From an uncultured Gammaproteobacteria bacterium (lineage in GTDB: Bacteria; Patescibacteriota; Patescibacteriia; UBA11705; JABHMO01), in assembly GCA_964486065.1 (NCBI GenBank), contig CAZAKN010000001.1:80657-144656 (forward strand): DNA of 64,000 nucleotides, written 5' to 3'. Position numbers and translations under genes: made by a program. The notes under the pieces are model-generated. The model was not told the origin of the DNA and did no database searches. It saw only the letters and a program-made list of their open reading frames with translations. Position 1 is the first letter of the stretch. Each line of letters begins with the position of its first letter. Positions 4,734 to 33,453 of this stretch are shown here, piece after piece.

Positions 4734-6317
4734 TTAAACAAGCGGTCTGCCACTCATTTCGTCCGGTGGCTCAATTCCCATTAATTTCAGAATAGTGGGA
4801 GCAATATCACTTAAAACTCCCACCGGTTGCAACAAACTTAAATCCACTCCGCTCTCCGTATTATTTAAAATATTTTTTCCTTCCAATTCACGATCAATCA
4901 CAATGCAAGGAACCGGATTGGTGCTATGTTCTTTGTCTCTTTCTCCGGTTTGCAGATTCAACAATTCTTCAGCGTTGCCATGATCAGCGGTAATAACCGC
5001 CTTCCCTCCTTTAGACAAAAGAAGTTCCACCACTTCGCCAACACATTGATCAATATATTCAATGGCTGTCACCGTTTCTTTTATTTCTCCAGTATGACCG
5101 ACCATATCAGGATTGGCGAAATTCACTACCACGAAATCATGTTTTTCACGATTTAATTCTTGAATCAATTTATCGGTTACCGATCGCGCGGACATAAGCG
5201 GTTGCTCTGAATAGGAAGCCACCTTGGGCGAAGGTACCACTATTCTATCCTCTCCTTCAAAAGCGTCTTCCGTGCCTCCACTGAAAAAAAATGTAACATG
5301 TGCGTATTTTTCAGTTTCCGCGATATGTAATTGCCTGAAACCCTTTTCACTAAGCACTCTGGGCAAAGATGTTTTAATAGTCTCTTTCTGATAAGCGACC
5401 TTGACGGGTAAACCTTCTTCGTATTGCGTCATGGTTACAAATAATAAATTATCAATTTTCTTTCCACGATCAAATTTATCAAACTCCTCATCTAAAAAAG
5501 TATGCGTTAATTGCCGAGCACGATCCGCACGATAATTAAAAAAGATGACCGCGTCATTATCACCCACAACCGCTCTCGGCGAACCTTCTTTGCCGATTAC
5601 AACAGGGATAAATTCTTCATCATAAACTTTTTCTTCATACGATTTTTCAATAGCTTTTACGGGATCCTTATAATATTCTTCACTTTCGCCGTCAGTCAAA
5701 ACCTTCCATGTTTTCTCAACTCTGTCCCAACGATTATCACGATCCATGGCGTAATAACGACCATGCAAAGAAGCGATTTTGCCGACTCCGATTTTTTTAA
5801 TCTCTTTTTGTAAATCTTCAATAAAGCCTTTGCCACTATTGTAAGGTGAATCACGACCGTCCAAAAAAGCATGCACAAAAACATCTTTCACCTTATTGCG
5901 TTTAGCCAAATCCAAAAGCGCGTAACAATGCGAATTCATGGCATGAACCTTTCCTTCACTCACCAATCCCACCAAATGCAATTTGGAGTTATGCTTTTTA
6001 ACATGATCAAACGCTTCCAAAAACGCCGCGTTTTCAAAAAAACCGCCACCATCAATATCCTTATCAATGCGTGGCAAATTTTGATAAAAAATCTTACCCA
6101 CGCCGAGATTCAAATGTCCAACTTCCGAATTCCCCATTTCCCCCCAAGACAAACCAACGGCTTCTCCCGAAGCCAACAAAGTCATGGCCGGATAGCTTTC
6201 AATGTATTTATTGATGTTCGAAGTTTTGGCCAGTGAGACACCATTCCCTTCAGAATGTGGCGCCACTCCCCAACCATCAAGAATTATTAGCATTACTGGT
6301 TTTCTGTTGTCAGACAT
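4734..6317 (-). CDS. gpmI: 2,3-bisphosphoglycerate-independent phosphoglycerate mutase (copy 1)
   Basis: 527 aa; N-terminal LIILDGWG, metal-binding alkaline-phosphatase-superfamily core, C-terminal ADHGN. Confidence 0.85.
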   Translation of the reverse strand: MSDNRKPVMLIILDGWGVAPHSEGNGVSLAKTSNINKYIESYPAMTLLASGEAVGLSWGEMGNSEVGHLNLGVGKIFYQNLPRIDKDIDGGGFFENAAFLEAFDHVKKHNSKLHLVGLVSEGKVHAMNSHCYALLDLAKRNKVKDVFVHAFLDGRDSPYNSGKGFIEDLQKEIKKIGVGKIASLHGRYYAMDRDNRWDRVEKTWKVLTDGESEEYYKDPVKAIEKSYEEKVYDEEFIPVVIGKEGSPRAVVGDNDAVIFFNYRADRARQLTHTFLDEEFDKFDRGKKIDNLLFVTMTQYEEGLPVKVAYQKETIKTSLPRVLSEKGFRQLHIAETEKYAHVTFFFSGGTEDAFEGEDRIVVPSPKVASYSEQPLMSARSVTDKLIQELNREKHDFVVVNFANPDMVGHTGEIKETVTAIEYIDQCVGEVVELLLSKGGKAVITADHGNAEELLNLQTGERDKEHSTNPVPCIVIDRELEGKNILNNTESGVDLSLLQPVGVLSDIAPTILKLMGIEPPDEMSGRPLV

Positions 6318-6366: not shown

Positions 6367-7923
6367 TTATTTTATAAGCGAACCTGAAATACCTTTGGGA
6401 ATTTTTTTGATATTAAACATTTGATAAATTGTCGGAGCAATATTGGTTAAATCCCCTTTTTTAAATAATTTGACTCCCTTTTTGTCATCACTTACCAAGA
6501 TCAAAGGAACGGGATTGGTCGTATGCCAAGTCCAAACTTCATCGGTTTTCAAGTCAAGCATTTTTTCCGCGTTACCATGATCAGCCGTGACGATCAGTTC
6601 ACCTTTATTTTTCAAAACAGCTTTACTTACCTCGCCCAAACATTTATCAGTATGCTCAATCGCTTTAATCGTGGCGGGCAAATTCCCCGTATGCCCCACC
6701 ATGTCGGGATTGGCGAAATTAATGGTAATGAAATCATATTTTTTTTGTTCAATATATTTCACGACCTGTTTAGCTATTTTATAAACACTCATTTCAGGTT
6801 TCAAATCATAACTTTTAACTTTCGGCGATGGAATCATTTGCCACTTTTCATGATCGCGTGTCTCCTTGTAACCACCATTGAAAAAATATGTGACATGCGC
6901 GTATTTTTCCGTTTCCGCTATATATAATGAATTAACATTTTCCAAAATTTTTGGCACTGATTGTTCCACCTGCGCTCCGGGGAAAGCTGCTTGCATGCCG
7001 TCAAGATCCGGTCCAAAGTCGGTTAAGGCGGTAAAAGTTAGATTTTTTATAACTTTGTTTCTTTTAAAAGAATTCTTATTTCTGCGATTGAAATCTTTTT
7101 GCGCAAAGGTTTTGGCTATTTGTCTCGCCCTATCTGATCTTAAGTTGAAAAATATGACCGAATCATTGTCATTAATTCTGCTTTTGGCGACATGCTTCCC
7201 ATCGGAGCAAATCGTGGCAGGTTCAATAAACTCATCGGTTATGCCTTTGTTGTATGAATGCAAAACCGCTTGTTTGAGATTTTTAAAATTACGACACTTG
7301 CCGGCGGTCAGGCAATCATAGGCTTTTTGCGTGCGTTGCCAATTTTTAACACGATCCATGGCGTAAAACCTTCCCATCACAGTTACGATTTTGGCTTTTC
7401 CTTTAACCTTTTTTTCCACTTCATCAAGCACTTCAATTGAAGCATATTGCGGAGAGTCACGACCATCGGTGATAAAATGCAGAAAAATATTTTTAACTTT
7501 ATATTTGGCCGCCATGTTCACCAAGGCATACATATGCTGTTTATCCGAATGAGGACTGCCGTTCTTGCTAAGCAATCCGAAAATATGTAAATTAGCAGCG
7601 TTTTGCTCGGCATGCTTGATAGAATCAATTAAAATATTATTTTTTTCAAAACGACCGTTTCTGATAGATTCGGAAATAATCACCGAATCTTGTTTAACCG
7701 GAAAACCGGCGCCGATATTCATATGTCCGGCTTCGGAATTTCCAACTTGATTTTTCGGCAATCCCACTTGCGAACCATGCGCCACCAACTTGGTATGCGA
7801 ATACTTCTCCCACAATTTTTCATAATTAGGCTTAACCGCTTGTTCAATAGCATTTCCTTTCGTTTTGGGAGCCAATCCCCAACCATCAAGAATCAGCAAT
7901 ACGATTGTTTTATTTGTTTTCAT
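6367..7923 (-). CDS. gpmI: 2,3-bisphosphoglycerate-independent phosphoglycerate mutase paralog (copy 2)
   Basis: 518 aa; same signature blocks (LLILDGWG, ANPDMVGHTG, TADHGNAE) as neighbouring copy but clearly diverged sequence. Confidence 0.8.
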   Translation of the reverse strand: MKTNKTIVLLILDGWGLAPKTKGNAIEQAVKPNYEKLWEKYSHTKLVAHGSQVGLPKNQVGNSEAGHMNIGAGFPVKQDSVIISESIRNGRFEKNNILIDSIKHAEQNAANLHIFGLLSKNGSPHSDKQHMYALVNMAAKYKVKNIFLHFITDGRDSPQYASIEVLDEVEKKVKGKAKIVTVMGRFYAMDRVKNWQRTQKAYDCLTAGKCRNFKNLKQAVLHSYNKGITDEFIEPATICSDGKHVAKSRINDNDSVIFFNLRSDRARQIAKTFAQKDFNRRNKNSFKRNKVIKNLTFTALTDFGPDLDGMQAAFPGAQVEQSVPKILENVNSLYIAETEKYAHVTYFFNGGYKETRDHEKWQMIPSPKVKSYDLKPEMSVYKIAKQVVKYIEQKKYDFITINFANPDMVGHTGNLPATIKAIEHTDKCLGEVSKAVLKNKGELIVTADHGNAEKMLDLKTDEVWTWHTTNPVPLILVSDDKKGVKLFKKGDLTNIAPTIYQMFNIKKIPKGISGSLIK

Positions 7924-21558: not shown

Positions 21559-21996
21559 GTGGATATGCATAAAAAAGAAAGAAAAAAATGGAACAAAATT
21601 TTCGGCGTGGAACATAAGCATTACAAAACCATTGAGCAGGCTTCCAAAGCCACACAAAAACTGGGGATCCGCTCGGCCACTCAATATTCCCGTAAGCGTC
21701 ACCAAGATCCTCTCTTACCCAAATCACCGAATTACACTTACAAAGATGATTGGAAAGGCTGGCATGAATTTCTGGGAACCGCGCCACGCCTTCGGAAAAA
21801 CTACTACACCACTTGGCAAGAAGCTTCCGAAGTGGCGCGCGAAATGGGTATCACCAAGATCGGTGAGTATGTGAAAAATCGCGATAAAGACGAAAAACTT
21901 CCTTTCAATCCGGAAAGTTTTTATCAAGATTGGCCGGGTTGGTCAGCCTTTTTCCGACACGCTCAAGAGAAAACTCCTCCCCACGCGGAAACCTAA
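21559..21996 (+). CDS. Small basic protein with two tandem integrase-repeat-unit-like motifs
   Basis: 145 aa (GTG start after AGGAGG); internal duplication ...LLPKSPNYTYKDDWKGWHEFLG / ...LPFNPESFYQDWPGWSAFF resembling the repeat found N-terminal to some tyrosine integrases; GC content above local background. Confidence 0.5.
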   Translation: MDMHKKERKKWNKIFGVEHKHYKTIEQASKATQKLGIRSATQYSRKRHQDPLLPKSPNYTYKDDWKGWHEFLGTAPRLRKNYYTTWQEASEVAREMGITKIGEYVKNRDKDEKLPFNPESFYQDWPGWSAFFRHAQEKTPPHAET

Positions 21997-22932: not shown

Positions 22933-24051
22933 TTATGATAATTCTTCACGAATCCGACGCATCATGGTTAGATAAAATTCCAAGTTGTTCAAAGTGGCCA
23001 AACGCTGAGCCAGACTGTCTTCGGTTACGAACAAATGTCGCAAATACGCTTTTGAATAATTTCTTAATTCGGAAAACTCACTCTCCGCGTTTATCGGCGA
23101 TGTGTCAAATTTGAATTTTTCCGCCTTGGCGTTGGCGGTTTGGTAAAATCCCTTGCCCGCATCCAAAATTCCGTTTTTGATTTTGCTGAAATTATATAAT
23201 CTTCCATGTCTGGCTTCGCGAGCCGGAATCACGCAATCAAACATATCCACGCCTCGCTTTACCGCTTCCACGATTTGATGAGGATACCCCACTCCCATTA
23301 AATATCTCGGTTTATTTTCCGGCAAAGCCGGTACCGTATAGTCCAGAACTTGATACATTTCCCGCTCACTTTCTCCCACGGACAAACCGCCGATAGCGTA
23401 ACCGTCAAATCCAATCTTTTGCAATTGTTCAGCGCTTTGCAACCGCAAATCTTGTTCCAAGCCTCCTTGAACAATGGCGAAAAGCAATGGTTTTTTCTTC
23501 TCATTTTTACAATACTTTTGGCATGCCTTTTTACTTTGCTCCGCCCATTCCGTTGTTAAAGCGATTGATTTTCGCAAATAGTTCCGTTTCGCGGGGATTT
23601 CCACGCATTCATCCAACACCATCATAATATCCGAGCCAATCGCCGTTTGAATACGGATGGAATCAGCCGGAGTCATATTAAATTTTCGTCCGTCAATATG
23701 CGAATTGAATTCTATGCCCGTGGCGGATATTTTCCTGATACGAGCCAAGGAAAAAACTTGAAATCCGCCACTATCGGTCAAGATCGGTTTTCGCCAACCC
23801 ATGAATTCATGCATACCTCCCAATTTTTTAATTTCCTTTTCGCCGGGACGCAACATTAGATGATAAGTATTGCCGAGGATAACTTCGGGCGCCAATTTCT
23901 CCAATTCAGTCACGGCAATCGTTTTCAAGCTGGCCTTGGTGGCTACGGGCATAAAAGTAGGAGTTTGAACAATCCCGCGACGGGTTTTTAATTCGCCTCT
24001 ACGAGCCTTATTTTTACGATTTAAGAGTTTATACATAAGGAAATGAAGCAT
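22933..24051 (-). CDS. tgt: Queuine tRNA-ribosyltransferase
   Basis: 372 aa; TGT family motifs (VQTPTFMPV, DSGGFQ, zinc-binding C-terminal region). Confidence 0.85.
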   Translation of the reverse strand: MLHFLMYKLLNRKNKARRGELKTRRGIVQTPTFMPVATKASLKTIAVTELEKLAPEVILGNTYHLMLRPGEKEIKKLGGMHEFMGWRKPILTDSGGFQVFSLARIRKISATGIEFNSHIDGRKFNMTPADSIRIQTAIGSDIMMVLDECVEIPAKRNYLRKSIALTTEWAEQSKKACQKYCKNEKKKPLLFAIVQGGLEQDLRLQSAEQLQKIGFDGYAIGGLSVGESEREMYQVLDYTVPALPENKPRYLMGVGYPHQIVEAVKRGVDMFDCVIPAREARHGRLYNFSKIKNGILDAGKGFYQTANAKAEKFKFDTSPINAESEFSELRNYSKAYLRHLFVTEDSLAQRLATLNNLEFYLTMMRRIREELS

Positions 24052-24359
24052 TATATTGTTAAATGAATTTTAGCTTAAATCAAAGCAAAAAGCAAAGGCC
24101 GCTTCTTGTGAGAAGCGGCTTTGATTTAAACGGCCATGGCCATTTCGGATTGATGCCATATCTGCTTTTTTTCGCAGGATACGGCGGGATTGTTCGCGCA
24201 GGGAAATTCGCCCGTAAAAGCGAATTTCAATCTGCAATTACGACATTCCGAGGGACGCGAAGATAGTTCGCTTTTTTCGCGTTCCCTTATTTGCAATAAC
24301 AACTCTAATCTTGACATGGGAACCCCCTTTTGCGAAATGGTTATTCAATTTATGATTGA

Positions 24360-24713
24360 TTATTTTTGTGCCACCACATCCGAAGCCGGATTCAGATAAG
24401 ATAAACCTTCCACCGGATGCATATCCAATTCTTCAATTTTTTCCATCAGCGCCACGGATGAACGCAATTCAACAGCCTTAATTGACAATTTTTCATTTTC
24501 CACGCGCAATTCATTGATTTGTCTTTCCAAATCGCGCACTTCAAATCCCTTGGCCGCGATAGTATTGATCTGCACCAAATACACGCCGATTGATACCAAA
24601 GTAACCAGACCTAAAAATACCCAAAAAAGATTTTTGAGCTTTTTCAGATTGGCTAAACTGAAATTTTTAACTTTATTAAAAATTCGGCAAGTGTTGTTGC
24701 AATATTTAGTCAT
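24360..24713 (-). CDS. FtsL/FtsB-like cell division protein
   Basis: 117 aa, single TM followed by coiled coil (INELRVENEKL); position downstream of mraZ-rsmH consistent with ftsL. Confidence 0.5.
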   Translation of the reverse strand: MTKYCNNTCRIFNKVKNFSLANLKKLKNLFWVFLGLVTLVSIGVYLVQINTIAAKGFEVRDLERQINELRVENEKLSIKAVELRSSVALMEKIEELDMHPVEGLSYLNPASDVVAQK

Positions 24714-24745
24714 AAGAAAATGATTATTCGCCTACCGGCGGGGCT

Positions 24746-24973
24746 TTATTTGGAGGCGTTAAACGCTACTCTATCTTTATACTCGGCTTTTTTACCGTTG
24801 TTCCAACGGTTCACCGGAGAAAGATATCCCACCACGCGAGAATAGATTTCGCACTTTTGGCGTTTTAATTCTTGAGCTGACATAAGATTAATATTAATTT
24901 GAATATTTAATCTGTAGTTTTTAATTTGACAATGTGGCGCTTTGGGCGCAAAGGAATATAGGGAAGAAAACAA
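24746..24973 (-). pseudogene. Remnant/standalone ORF resembling the C-terminal glycyl-radical motif region of anaerobic ribonucleotide reductase NrdD
   Basis: ORF ends ...YSRVVGYLSPVNRWNNGKKAEYKDRV..., matching the NrdD C-terminus (RVCGYLGSP...NAGKQEEVKRRV) from memory; preceding Zn-ribbon Cys pairs absent; no upstream NrdD body. Confidence 0.4.
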
Positions 24974-25691
24974 GCCCTAAAGTCACAGGCTAAGTGCCGG
25001 GGAACATTCAGCCGGCGACAGCATATTACCTTTGCGCCCTTTTTCGCAATAAAAAAATATTAAGTGCACCACAACCTAATATTCACATATAAAATGCAGA
25101 CTCCGAGGAGAATACTGAAAACTTACCGTCTTGCTTTGAGTTTGGCGAATTGTCAGCTGAATGTCGGGGAACAATCAGACGGCAATTCCGCGTTTATTAC
25201 TTCGTCTAAGACTGAAACTTGCAATATTCTCATCCGCAAATCAAATCATCTGCATTTTACATTTAAATATTAAAAATATCCTTGCCAGGGCGTAAAGAAT
25301 AAGCGGTAATTTCGTGCTGTTTGAATTTACCAAGATTGACAGCCTCAGCCGTCAATAAAGTATAAAATCCAACAGACTTATAAAATGAAAAAACCTTTTC
25401 TCCACACCCTGACCGCAAATCACACACAGCGAGATTAACTTGTAAGAGAGACAAGCATGATTCCCTTACAGCTTCTCCGCCTTACGATTAATCTCAATGT
25501 TTGGCCAAGGCGCATAAACAATATACTCCGATTTCTATGCTTTTGCTTTGCCATGATCGGCAGTAAAAAACCGCTAATCTAGTACGAAGTAAAAACACAT
25601 GAGAGAAAACCGGTACCGCTCACACGCCCTGAACGCAAATCACATTTTTTAAAGTACTCTTGCCGTAAACAGATATTCAATTGATTATTGA

Positions 25692-26627
25692 CTAAATTAT
25701 TTCCGCCACTCGCAGTTTGGCCGACCGTGCTCGTGGATTTTCGGAAATTTCTTCTTCACTGGCCGTTATCGCTTTTTTAGTGACTCTTTTCAGACTTGCC
25801 CGATGATCACAGCGACATTCAGGGATTTCTTTGGGACAGATACAATCTTTACTTTGTTGTTTGAAATATTGCTTAACGATCCTATCTTCCAAGGAGTGAA
25901 ACGAAATAATCGCTATTCTACCTCCCTGAATTATTACTTGCTCAGCTTGTCGTAAAACGCTTTTCACATTTGCCAATTCGTCATTTACTTCTATTCTCAA
26001 AGCTTGAAATGTTTTAGTGGCAGGATGAATCTTACTTTTTCCCTTTAAAACAACACTTTCAATTAACTCGGTTAAATCCTTAGTGGTAACGAAAGGTTTT
26101 TCTTTTCTCCGACCGACAATCGCTTGAGCTATTTTTCGCGCTCGTGGCTCTTCACCATATTCTCGCAATATTTTTATTAAATCCTTTTCCGAATAATTAT
26201 TTAAAATATGTTCCGCCGTCAGCCCGTTCAGATCCGGCGAAAATCTCATGTCTAACGGTTCAACCATCTGAAAACTAAATCCCCTGCCCCTTCTCGCGAG
26301 CTGATCTGAAGAAAGCCCCAAATCAAGTACAATGCCGTTAATTTGTAAATTTTCTTCAACATATTTATTTAATATTTGTTTTAAATTGGTGTATGAATCA
26401 TGAACCGGAATAAATCTGGTTCCATAATTTGTTAAGAATTCACGGGCTTCGCCCAAAGCTTCTTTGTCCCAATCAATACCGATTAATTTGCCCTTCGGAC
26501 CGGTCTTTTCCAAGATCGCCTTGGCGTGACCGCCCGCACCCAGCGTGCCATCTATATAATTTTGATTGGCGCCGGGATTTAAATATTGGATTACTTCACT
26601 TGTCATTACCGATTTATGAATTGACAC
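25692..26627 (-). CDS. rsmH: 16S rRNA (cytosine1402-N4)-methyltransferase RsmH (MraW)
   Basis: 311 aa; SAM-binding DGTLGAGGH motif; follows mraZ. Confidence 0.9.
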   Translation of the reverse strand: MSIHKSVMTSEVIQYLNPGANQNYIDGTLGAGGHAKAILEKTGPKGKLIGIDWDKEALGEAREFLTNYGTRFIPVHDSYTNLKQILNKYVEENLQINGIVLDLGLSSDQLARRGRGFSFQMVEPLDMRFSPDLNGLTAEHILNNYSEKDLIKILREYGEEPRARKIAQAIVGRRKEKPFVTTKDLTELIESVVLKGKSKIHPATKTFQALRIEVNDELANVKSVLRQAEQVIIQGGRIAIISFHSLEDRIVKQYFKQQSKDCICPKEIPECRCDHRASLKRVTKKAITASEEEISENPRARSAKLRVAEII

Positions 26628-26709: not shown

Positions 26710-27141
26710 TTAAATTCCCAGTTCTCCCAAATGTTCGGCGATTTCATTGCTTTGCTTTTCAGTATCTTTCTTGTATTTTTCCCATTTTACTTCATCCCAG
26801 ATTTCCAATCTATCATACAAACCGGCAATAACCGCTTTTTTTCCTATTTCCGCGAATTTGCGTAAATATTCGGGAATCATTATTCTACCTTGTTTATCAA
26901 GTTGAACATCCATAGCTCCGGCTAACATCAATCTGGCAAAAGCTCTGGTATTGGCTTGACTGAAAGGAAGTTCAGAAAGTTTTTCAGCCAATTTTTCCCA
27001 TTCCTTTTTCGTGTAAATAAATAAAGAATTGTCCAAACCGCGCGTAACCACCGCTCCCCTTGCCAAAGCCAAGCGAAATTTGACCGGCACGGCCAGTCTT
27101 CCTTTCGCGTCCAAGGAATGATTGTATTCTCCTATAAACAT
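26710..27141 (-). CDS. mraZ: Transcriptional regulator MraZ
   Basis: 143 aa; duplicated MraZ half-domains with DxxxR motifs (LDAKGRL / LDKQGRI). Confidence 0.85.
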   Translation of the reverse strand: MFIGEYNHSLDAKGRLAVPVKFRLALARGAVVTRGLDNSLFIYTKKEWEKLAEKLSELPFSQANTRAFARLMLAGAMDVQLDKQGRIMIPEYLRKFAEIGKKAVIAGLYDRLEIWDEVKWEKYKKDTEKQSNEIAEHLGELGI

Positions 27142-29034: not shown

Positions 29035-29109
29035 TGGTACCCCCAAGGGGAATTGAACCCCTGTTTTCAGCGTGAGAAGCTGATGTCCTAACCACTAGAC
29101 GATGGGGGC
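29035..29109 (-). tRNA. tRNA-Glu (anticodon CUC)
   Basis: Hand-folded cloverleaf on minus strand: GCCCCCA acceptor, D arm GTCT/AGTGGTTA/GGAC, anticodon stem TCAGC-TTCTCAC-GCTGA (CTC), T arm AGGGG-TTCAATT-CCCCT, discriminator A, encoded CCA; closely resembles E. coli tRNA-Glu. Confidence 0.9.
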
Positions 29110-33192: not shown

Positions 33193-33453
33193 ATTTTGTT
33201 ATTTTATTGCTAAATTTAAATAAAAAATATCTGCTTCCGCAGACATCAAAATATTTAGAAATTATTATTTTGCCTAGGCGGGAAATTAAGCTATTCAGCA
33301 CCCACTGTCTACGGTAAATATTGTTGAAAACAGTATAATATTTTTTTTAATAACTGTCAAATACCCTCACGAAACACGGAATCTAAAACTGTAACGAAGC
33401 AAACGAGAGATGATTAAAAACCATAATCTGTGAATTTTTCCTCTTCCTATGCT

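Follow-up and report, generated by a model that had tools for sequence, protein, structure and literature searches.

The window analysed here is the whole stretch of 64,000 nt taken from contig CAZAKN010000001.1 (GCA_964486065.1), a genome that GTDB places in the Patescibacteriota, and the gene under study is a very small one on its minus strand, whose product resembles the radical-bearing C-terminal end of NrdD, the class III (anaerobic) ribonucleotide reductase (RNR). An open reading frame (ORF) at 24746..24973 on the minus strand had been pointed out in the first-pass annotation, and the ORF list contained it with the same translation, ending ...EIYSRVVGYLSPVNRWNNGKKAEYKDRVAFNASK. Judged by its homologues, the real gene is the ATG-initiated ORF inside this frame, which runs from 24883 to 24746 (stop codon included) and encodes 45 aa (MSAQELKRQKCEIYSRVVGYLSPVNRWNNGKKAEYKDRVAFNASK), and not the TTG-started frame of 75 aa. 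The internal ATG was preferred because the 30 codons upstream of it in the TTG frame brought no gain in Pfam score (40.8 vs 40.4 bits) and because the equivalent Met is the start in 35 of 35 homologues. In addition, the frame is open for merely 1-5 codons 5' of this Met in two syntenic relatives, L010 and L013. The upstream part of the longer frame (24884..24973, minus strand) is therefore most likely untranslated. Based on the ORF list, the Pfam NRDD match, the homologues, the substitution pattern and a structure model, we annotated 24746..24883 (minus strand) as a putative gene for a free-standing NrdD-type glycyl-radical peptide.

The similarity of this peptide to the NrdD C-terminus, which had been proposed in the first-pass annotation, turned out to be significant: the Pfam NRDD profile (PF13597) matched with an E-value of 1.6e-10 and 40.8 bits, compared with a curated cut-off of 26.2. 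This match is confined to profile positions 530-562 of 562, i.e., the last ~33 positions. The NCBIfam NrdD models (TIGR02487 family) also matched solely at their C-terminal ends, with 36.7 bits against an equivalog cut-off of 326 bits. When PDB sequences were searched with phmmer, Prevotella copri NrdD (8p23) was matched over its residues 710-737 by residues 14-40 of the peptide, and Thermotoga maritima NrdD (4coi) over its residues 611-642 by residues 9-39; in both structures the aligned stretch is the glycyl-radical loop. The R-V-x-G-Y-type motif near the C-terminus, by which NrdD proteins are recognized, is present as RVVGY, and its Gly19 (GGA codon at 24827..24829, minus strand), identified by reading the sequence and by alignment to 8p23 and 4coi and invariant in the family, is the predicted radical-bearing glycine. 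The ten-stranded alpha/beta barrel, the finger-loop cysteine and the zinc-binding Cys/His site, which are also characteristic of NrdD, are all lacking in the 45-aa peptide. Considering that it has neither barrel nor zinc site and scores far below the equivalog cut-off, it should be regarded as a piece of NrdD and not as NrdD itself. The earlier statement that neither an NrdD body nor the zinc ribbon accompanies it also held, since tblastn with related NrdD, NrdG and NrdR sequences returned nothing else in the 64 kb. By hmmscan, NRDD was the sole family returned, and the Gly_radical family of pyruvate formate-lyase (PFL) type (PF01228) gave no match even at E<=10. An AlphaFold2 model of the peptide alone (predicted local distance difference test score 72.6) contains a beta-hairpin formed by residues 11-14 and 20-23, whose tip is occupied by Gly19, and a helix that spans residues 29-35, an arrangement that would be expected for a glycyl-radical domain (GRD). 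Foldseek comparison of this model with the PDB gave no meaningful match (best E-value 6.3), the query being too short.

We then searched 5.8 billion proteins and retrieved 35 homologues of the peptide, all of 41-67 aa and with 58-76% identity by alignment, which came exclusively from Patescibacteria or from unnamed metagenome contigs. Neither the peptide nor the RsmH of the window had an identical sequence among the recorded proteins. Sixteen alignment columns are invariant among them (M1, C11, E12, Y14, R16, V17, V18, G19, Y20, P23, W27, N28, G30, K31, E34 and R38), and the window peptide carries all of them. It also fits the family pattern, which consists of Met, 5-25 residues and then [RK]xx-C-E-[IV]-Y-S-R-V-V-G-Y-x-x-P-x-x-x-W-N-x-G-K-x-x-E-x-x-x-R. 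The core of the window peptide is 85% identical to the operon-encoded copies L001 and L005, and 82% identical to the other two copies located in the division and cell wall (dcw) gene cluster, namely L010 (GCA_964413735.1) and L013 (Ca. Falkowbacteria RIFOXYC2_FULL_36_12). These two genomes have the small gene in the same slot as the window, mraZ-rsmH-[gene]-ftsL-tgt, and the conservation of the short ORF in relatives, which the first-pass annotation had suggested checking, was thus observed both as synteny and as a set of short homologues. Among the three dcw copies, dN/dS is 0.06-0.14 with a proportion of synonymous differences (pS) of 0.63-0.69 (Nei-Gojobori, 34-codon core). Against more distant copies pS reaches 0.64-1.07, at or near saturation, and the proportion of nonsynonymous differences is merely 0.12-0.25. 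This substitution pattern indicates that purifying selection on the small gene is strong.

Most relatives carry the small gene inside an nrdR-nrdD-small-nrdG operon. The NrdD encoded there (hereafter NrdD-large) is 687-688 aa long and contains an ATP-cone and the NRDD barrel. Its C-terminus, ...CPRCDEEMGYIEAGSDVLAKASEN before the stop (also quoted as ...FSICPVHGYISGEHEYCPRCDEEMGYIEAGSDVLAKASEN), lies just past the Cys-x2-His...Cys-x2-Cys zinc site and lacks RVVGY. The small ORF starts 69-126 nt after nrdD-large with its own start codon, which is preceded by GGAGG in L001. NrdD-large aligns to 8p23 until CPKC (around residue 704), and the small protein resumes the alignment at residue 710. Together, the two ORFs add up to one complete NrdD, with the break after the final zinc ligand and before the glycyl loop. 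In fused relatives the same region reads CPKC-x4..8-CEVYSRVVGY, whereas the split forms that we read usually have CPxC-[DE]-x-E-x-G-[YF], a short variable tail and a stop, a motif without counterpart in the fused forms. The finger-loop motif MCCR is kept in the NrdD-large sequences read, and for this reason NrdD-large is not obviously a dead enzyme. Among the top 120 homologues of a Falkowbacteria NrdD-large, nearly all are 676-716 aa long and a few are of about 1015 aa with an intein; the longer homologues inspected have no glycyl loop, except for one odd entry of 704 aa. For every complete nrdD-large of close relatives among the metagenome and NCBI matches listed (~30 loci, the latter from metagenome-assembled genomes, MAGs), the small ORF was either adjoining or fused. 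Some split-type NrdD-large proteins are as long as 1000-1450 aa (P0093, P0095, P0099 and P0155; L200-L203 and L209), and at least one of these long forms has an intein domain (PF14890), so that intein insertion and detachment of the GRD occur together.

We also considered whether the two ORFs could be joined into one chain by read-through, frameshift, bypass or a split intein. The gap between them can be as short as about 20 nt or as long as 180 nt, 10 loci have nrdG between the two, the small gene can be unlinked, and the tails are no longer than ~5-25 aa; split inteins need longer flanking sequences than such tails. Covalent joining is therefore unlikely. No mobile element was present in the gap between nrdD-large and the small gene in the split operons inspected.

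To describe the distribution of this arrangement, we defined the small-subunit family of two-piece NrdD (41-90 aa) from the family alignment and scanned GTDB with one genome per species. At least 598 relatives were found, and the best 80 of them were classified by profile hidden Markov models (HMMs). Half of these 80 loci are split, with an NrdD body next to the small gene; the arrangement is nrdD-small-nrdG in 30 of them and nrdD-nrdG-small in 10. The others comprise 23 fused forms, nine free-standing ORFs, five partial frames, and three short ORFs that adjoin NrdG and whose NrdD body falls outside the contig. Split forms were found in Patescibacteria (Falkow-, Dojka- and Saccharibacteria as well as others), in DPANN and other archaea (Woese-, Pace- and Micrarchaeota, Nanobdellota and Thermoplasmatales), in Halanaerobiales, in other Bacillota, and in Synergistales, a Thermotogae MAG and Cryosericum. 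Most of this evidence comes from MAGs, and the split operon was seen in one isolate, Halanaerobium saccharolyticum MA284_T2 (L020), in which the small frame is open over 59 codons and the peptide would have ~45-50 aa. An exhaustive HMMER search of 1.84e9 representatives clustered at 50% identity with the family profile gave 5017 matches at E<=1e-3 (2495 at E<=1e-10), the best 150 of which are all 45-149 aa long, mostly 48-85 aa.

Copies away from nrdD were found as well. One relative, GCA_964584985.1, has an operon copy (48 aa; P0009, L258 6001-6147) in the order ftsA-ftsZ-HAD-nrdD(692)-small(48)-nrdG on contig ...004.1, and an unlinked copy (49 aa; P0021, L261 6001-6150) on contig ...003.1, where nusB-rnc-tRNA genes flank it on one side and a SpoIID-like gene on the other. 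The unlinked copy lies downstream of the tRNA cluster and has its own sigma-70-type promoter of consensus sequence (TTGACA-17-TATAAT), and the two peptides share an identical 22-residue core. Subject to the binning of this MAG, it is a genuine case of an extra copy.

Many further copies were present in viral genomes. A scan of IMG/VR gave 398 relatives, and the best 80 loci (L093-L172) were classified within ±10 kb of the gene. Short free-standing ORFs with neither NrdD body nor NrdG in this range account for 76 of these 80; the remaining four are one fused form, one split operon and two loci with an in-frame stop. Since ±10 kb was covered at each viral locus, NrdD of larger phages could lie further off. 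Outside the IMG/VR set, phage contigs L008 and L262/L263 likewise carry the small gene without NrdD body or NrdG within 10 kb. Three phage contigs, nearly the whole of which was inspected, have two copies about 10 kb apart (L113 and L141, L114 and L149, L115 and L151). All four phage contexts examined contain phage hallmark genes, and the genes seen encode portal (including P22/SU10-type), head morphogenesis, tail fibre and replication O proteins, DnaC/DnaD-type loaders and an HNH endonuclease. In PHROGs there is no family for the peptide, and its one match is to the terminal part of phrog_487 ('NrdD-like large subunit'). Host groups with the split type have the small subunits that most resemble the phage cores, with identities of up to 94-97% to those of Halanaerobiales and 88% to those of Synergistales, Dojkabacteria and a Thermotogae MAG. 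The conserved Cys is replaced by Thr or Ala in some phage copies, and one phage subgroup has an N-terminal extension, NGDLxLDNGxxIPAxKR. In two IMG/VR loci (L167 1316-1471 and L168 9974-10129) an in-frame stop and two extra codons interrupt the motif (CEVYSR*ISVVGY), which could reflect a pseudogene, recoding or an assembly artefact.

Somewhat longer forms also exist. Free-standing proteins of about 117 aa, composed of a CxxC...CxxC zinc ribbon and the glycyl loop, were found in MAGs of Desulfobacterales and related organisms (L045, L053, L055, L061, L068 and L087), with no NrdD within 10 kb and with unrelated neighbours such as MltC and peptidase M55. The archaeal virus ANMV-1 (KP703175.1, L254 3686-4120) encodes a similar ribbon and loop protein, annotated as 144 aa. 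Besides these, a 165-aa protein of two Patescibacteria MAGs (L081 9644-10141 and L091) covers the last ~130 positions of the NRDD profile, i.e., the final barrel elements, the zinc site and the glycyl loop, and its gene has prfA and ftsE/ftsX as neighbours but no NrdD body in the vicinity. Either NrdD is broken at another point here, or this is a spare of another type.

In the window, the small gene is surrounded by a conserved chromosomal segment (mraZ, rsmH, ftsL, tgt and genes for a penicillin-binding protein (PBP), MutS/L and alanyl-tRNA synthetase), and the idea that it belongs to a mobile island was not borne out. On the minus strand, as is the small gene itself, mraZ (26710..27141) and rsmH (25692..26627) lie upstream, and tgt, the queuine tRNA-ribosyltransferase gene (22933..24051), follows in the same order as in relatives; each of these ORFs is syntenic with the corresponding gene of L010 (PF02381, PF01795 and PF01702, respectively) and was assigned with the help of tblastn. 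The immediate downstream neighbour (24360..24713, minus strand) encodes a small FtsL-like membrane protein, conserved in position and sequence in L010 and L013. It has no Pfam match, and its assignment as ftsL relies on its position in the dcw cluster. Thus, rsmH and ftsL flank the small gene in the window, L010 and L013 instead of nrdD and nrdG. A G+C-rich, terminator- or attenuator-like hairpin was detected by consensus scan at 24727..24742 (no strand assigned), just 3' of the stop codon and before ftsL. NrdR boxes were absent near the small gene, and the two matches with three mismatches in other parts of the window are no more than chance would give.

An ORF-free, strongly structured stretch of 808 nt (24884..25691, minus strand) separates rsmH from the small gene. 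It is particular to this genome and not a feature of the family: in L010 the two genes are 7 nt apart, and in L013 ~93 nt. On the minus strand the 808-nt stretch folds much better than shuffled sequences (z -4.8 and -4.5). It contains two local direct-repeat pairs and two hairpins sharing a TTCCCCG loop, and imperfect 17-nt inverted repeats are located at its ends (24890-24906 and 25673-25689). No Rfam family was found in it, either by a gathering-threshold search of the window or by a permissive E-value search of 24300-26000, and blastn and tblastx gave no homologue across all fetched loci. A gap of about 870 nt 5' of the free copy in L260/L261 was considered as a possible relative, but it is made up of tRNA genes and a promoter and is unrelated.

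Several other features of the window were observed. An Integrase repeat unit (PF14882, E-value 2.5e-15) was recognized in a protein of 145 aa encoded at 21559-21996 on the plus strand, between Band-7 and PBP genes; it is the sole mobile-element-like feature near the small gene and lies on the opposite strand in the dcw region. Cofactor-independent phosphoglycerate mutase (iPGM_N and Metalloenzyme domains) is encoded by two full-length paralogous genes, which lie side by side at 4734-6317 and 6367-7923 on the minus strand. Just two curated Rfam families were detected in the window, a ribosomal protein L10 leader (33212-33332, minus strand, 74 bits) and a tRNA (29038-29109, minus strand).

Taken together, it is probable that the 45-aa product is a free-standing GRD peptide that serves in trans as a subunit, or as a spare, of the class III RNR NrdD. 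From homology and gene context we infer a mechanism of three steps. The activase NrdG, a radical S-adenosylmethionine (SAM) enzyme, would abstract the C-alpha hydrogen of Gly19 in RVVGY. The peptide would then dock non-covalently in the barrel of a glycyl-loop-less NrdD-large, which ends a few residues past the Cys/His zinc site. Finally, the glycyl radical would generate a thiyl radical on the finger-loop cysteine (MCCR), and ribonucleotide reduction would proceed as in fused NrdDs. For fused class III RNRs such radical-transfer chemistry is established with the T4 and Escherichia coli enzymes. In a two-piece enzyme the oxygen-labile part would be a separate peptide of 5 kDa, and therefore replaceable without remaking the ~690-aa enzyme. 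Tentatively, and with rather less than even confidence, we would go further and regard the peptide as a natural, exchangeable glycyl-radical 'cofactor': NrdG may activate the free peptide, which plugs into the GRD-less NrdD and is replaced after oxygen damage; extra copies may be regulated separately, and phages may boost or capture host anaerobic dNTP synthesis with a gene of ~150 bp.

The first-pass annotation had offered a stand-alone, GrcA-like domain for NrdD as one possible reading. In substance this is supported, as there is a large family of free-standing NrdD-type peptides; the setting in which they mostly occur had not been anticipated. In most genomes the peptide is no spare for a complete NrdD, being the separate glycyl-radical piece of an NrdD that lacks the loop, and extra copies were seen in one relative and in phages. 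As for the window gene, its location between rsmH and ftsL, away from nrdD and nrdG, implies either a second copy or the sole, relocated one, and the NrdD body and NrdG of this genome are predicted to lie elsewhere in the genome. We consider the chances about balanced that the window gene is a second copy with expression of its own, which would make it a true spare, as the unlinked gene of GCA_964584985.1 is. The lean toward an extra copy comes from the facts that no nrdD-large of a close relative lacks a small gene of its own and that a two-copy genome exists.

Several observations weigh against a trans-acting or spare peptide at this locus. Both tblastn and profile HMMs (built from 52 NrdD bodies and 73 NrdGs) showed that NrdD body and NrdG are absent from the 64-kb window. 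Inspection of the sequence and a consensus scan revealed no recognisable Shine-Dalgarno sequence or strong promoter 5' of the small gene, and the gene is preceded by the puzzling 808-nt insert, perhaps a MITE-like (miniature inverted-repeat transposable element) insertion or a structured RNA. The two-copy case is a MAG bin, in which a tetranucleotide correlation of 0.98 between the contigs is not proof of one genome. Moreover, GrcA and Y06I with PFL are the only precedent for a trans-acting glycyl-radical part.

Another explanation is that the window gene is the sole, relocated essential subunit, the nrdD-large/nrdG operon having lost its small gene, in which case RNR activity would be tied to expression of the division operon. 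We take this as a real if doubtful possibility, to be rated below an even chance. For the L013 genome the dcw copy stands alone among the GTDB matches listed, an observation that also speaks against an extra copy, and the core of the window peptide is as close to operon subunits (85%, L001 and L005) as to the dcw copies (82%). However, none of the ~30 complete nrdD-large loci of close relatives is without a neighbouring small ORF, the GTDB result refers to the at least 598 matches listed, and a relative with two copies exists. The suggestion made from the sequence that an nrdD of phage or mobile origin has decayed here, leaving the gene as a relic, now appears very improbable. The absence of an NrdD body within 64 kb, the odd 808-nt insert and the close relatives of the peptide on phage contigs would agree with decay, but the frame is intact, all family-invariant residues are kept, the dcw position is shared by three genomes, dN/dS is 0.06-0.14 against two syntenic genomes without the insert, and it is the conserved dcw cluster, and no island, that surrounds the gene.

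It is also conceivable, though quite unlikely, that the free peptide is a decoy or regulator, modulating RNR activity through competition for NrdG or for the site in NrdD that the GRD occupies, and in phages a takeover or inhibitory factor. The unlinked and phage-borne copies with their own expression signals, the two copies in some phages and the replacement of the conserved Cys by Thr or Ala would suit such a role. On the other hand, neither the radical glycine nor any part of the motif around it varies, as would be expected of a working radical site, the operon and free copies of one MAG share an identical 22-residue core, and nothing but the peptide could supply the glycyl loop in split operons. 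We give hardly any credence to the idea that the peptide donates its radical to another glycyl-radical enzyme, or that it is an unrelated small protein resembling the end of NrdD; NrdD was indeed not seen in the window, but NRDD is the sole family match, Gly_radical gave none at E<=10, and the adjoining partners in the 40 split GTDB loci are always NrdD and NrdG.

Apparently, this large family of free-standing NrdD glycyl-radical peptides is undescribed. No description of a split class III RNR or of an NrdD-type spare part was found in the open full-text literature, subscription journals lying outside this scope, so that a prior mention is possible. Andorfer et al. (2021) merely speculated on the existence of other spare parts (PMC8683613), and a review of glycyl-radical enzymes from June 2026 lists spare parts for formate lyases only (PMC13450708). 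The 144-aa 'nrdD' of ANMV-1 was taken for a complete oxygen-sensitive RNR (PMC4372165), and the largest RNR phylogeny excluded sequences shorter than 400 aa (PMC9531940).

If the proposed function is true, this would be the first spare-part or two-piece system for a glycyl-radical enzyme outside the formate lyases. Oxygen irreversibly cuts glycyl-radical enzymes at the radical glycine, and GrcA/YfiD for PFL is, to our knowledge, the only known repair. A counterpart of such spare parts now appears for class III RNR, and in whole lineages the enzyme seems to be genetically two-piece. How the activase reaches the glycine, which is buried in the barrel of the fused enzyme, is a long-standing problem, for which the two-piece system would offer a minimal natural substrate, a peptide of 5 kDa. 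There are also consequences for annotation: thousands of ~690-aa 'ribonucleoside triphosphate reductases' would have no radical site of their own, and the tiny ORFs labelled 'anaerobic RNR' would be neither fragments nor errors. For phage biology, the small gene suggests a very cheap auxiliary metabolic gene.

Comparison with known systems helps to place this peptide. Like GrcA/YfiD of E. coli and Y06I of phage T4, it is a small stand-alone GRD that also occurs in phages. By analogy with GrcA/YfiD, its activation is presumed to depend on the cognate radical-SAM activase, and its action to be in trans, on a large enzyme without a functional GRD; like GrcA, it may be present in addition to the usual source of the domain (GCA_964584985.1). 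Unlike GrcA, which is a homologue of PFL, it is a homologue of NrdD, and as it has no Gly_radical (PF01228) match it is not a member of the GrcA/YfiD family. With 45 aa it is much smaller than GrcA (127 aa), and in most genomes it is, unlike the GrcA spare, the only glycyl loop of a genetically truncated NrdD. The GRD of fused class III RNRs (T4, 4coi and 8p23) has the same motif in the same position relative to the zinc site, and the structure predicted for the peptide likewise consists of a hairpin that has Gly at its tip and leads into a helix. In contrast to the fused domain, the peptide is a separate polypeptide, encoded 20-180 nt past nrdD-large, after nrdG, or, as in the window, in an unrelated operon.

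Split RNRs have been reported before. In the class II RNR NrdJa/NrdJb of Pseudomonas aeruginosa, the catalytic chain is encoded as two ORFs whose products need to assemble (PMC4520616 and PMC9669993). This is another RNR class, with two large folded pieces and no radical-bearing peptide. Phage RNR genes also occur in pieces, such as T4 nrdD with its intron, Aeh1 nrdA-a/b and the nrdD fragments of phiAS4 (PMC3653736). These phage splits are due to introns, inteins, homing endonucleases or recent breaks, and all pieces reside in one phage genome. By contrast, the break point in the peptide system is conserved across phyla, and most phage loci hold the small piece alone. Conserved detachment of the radical domain was seen in none of the known split RNRs compared.

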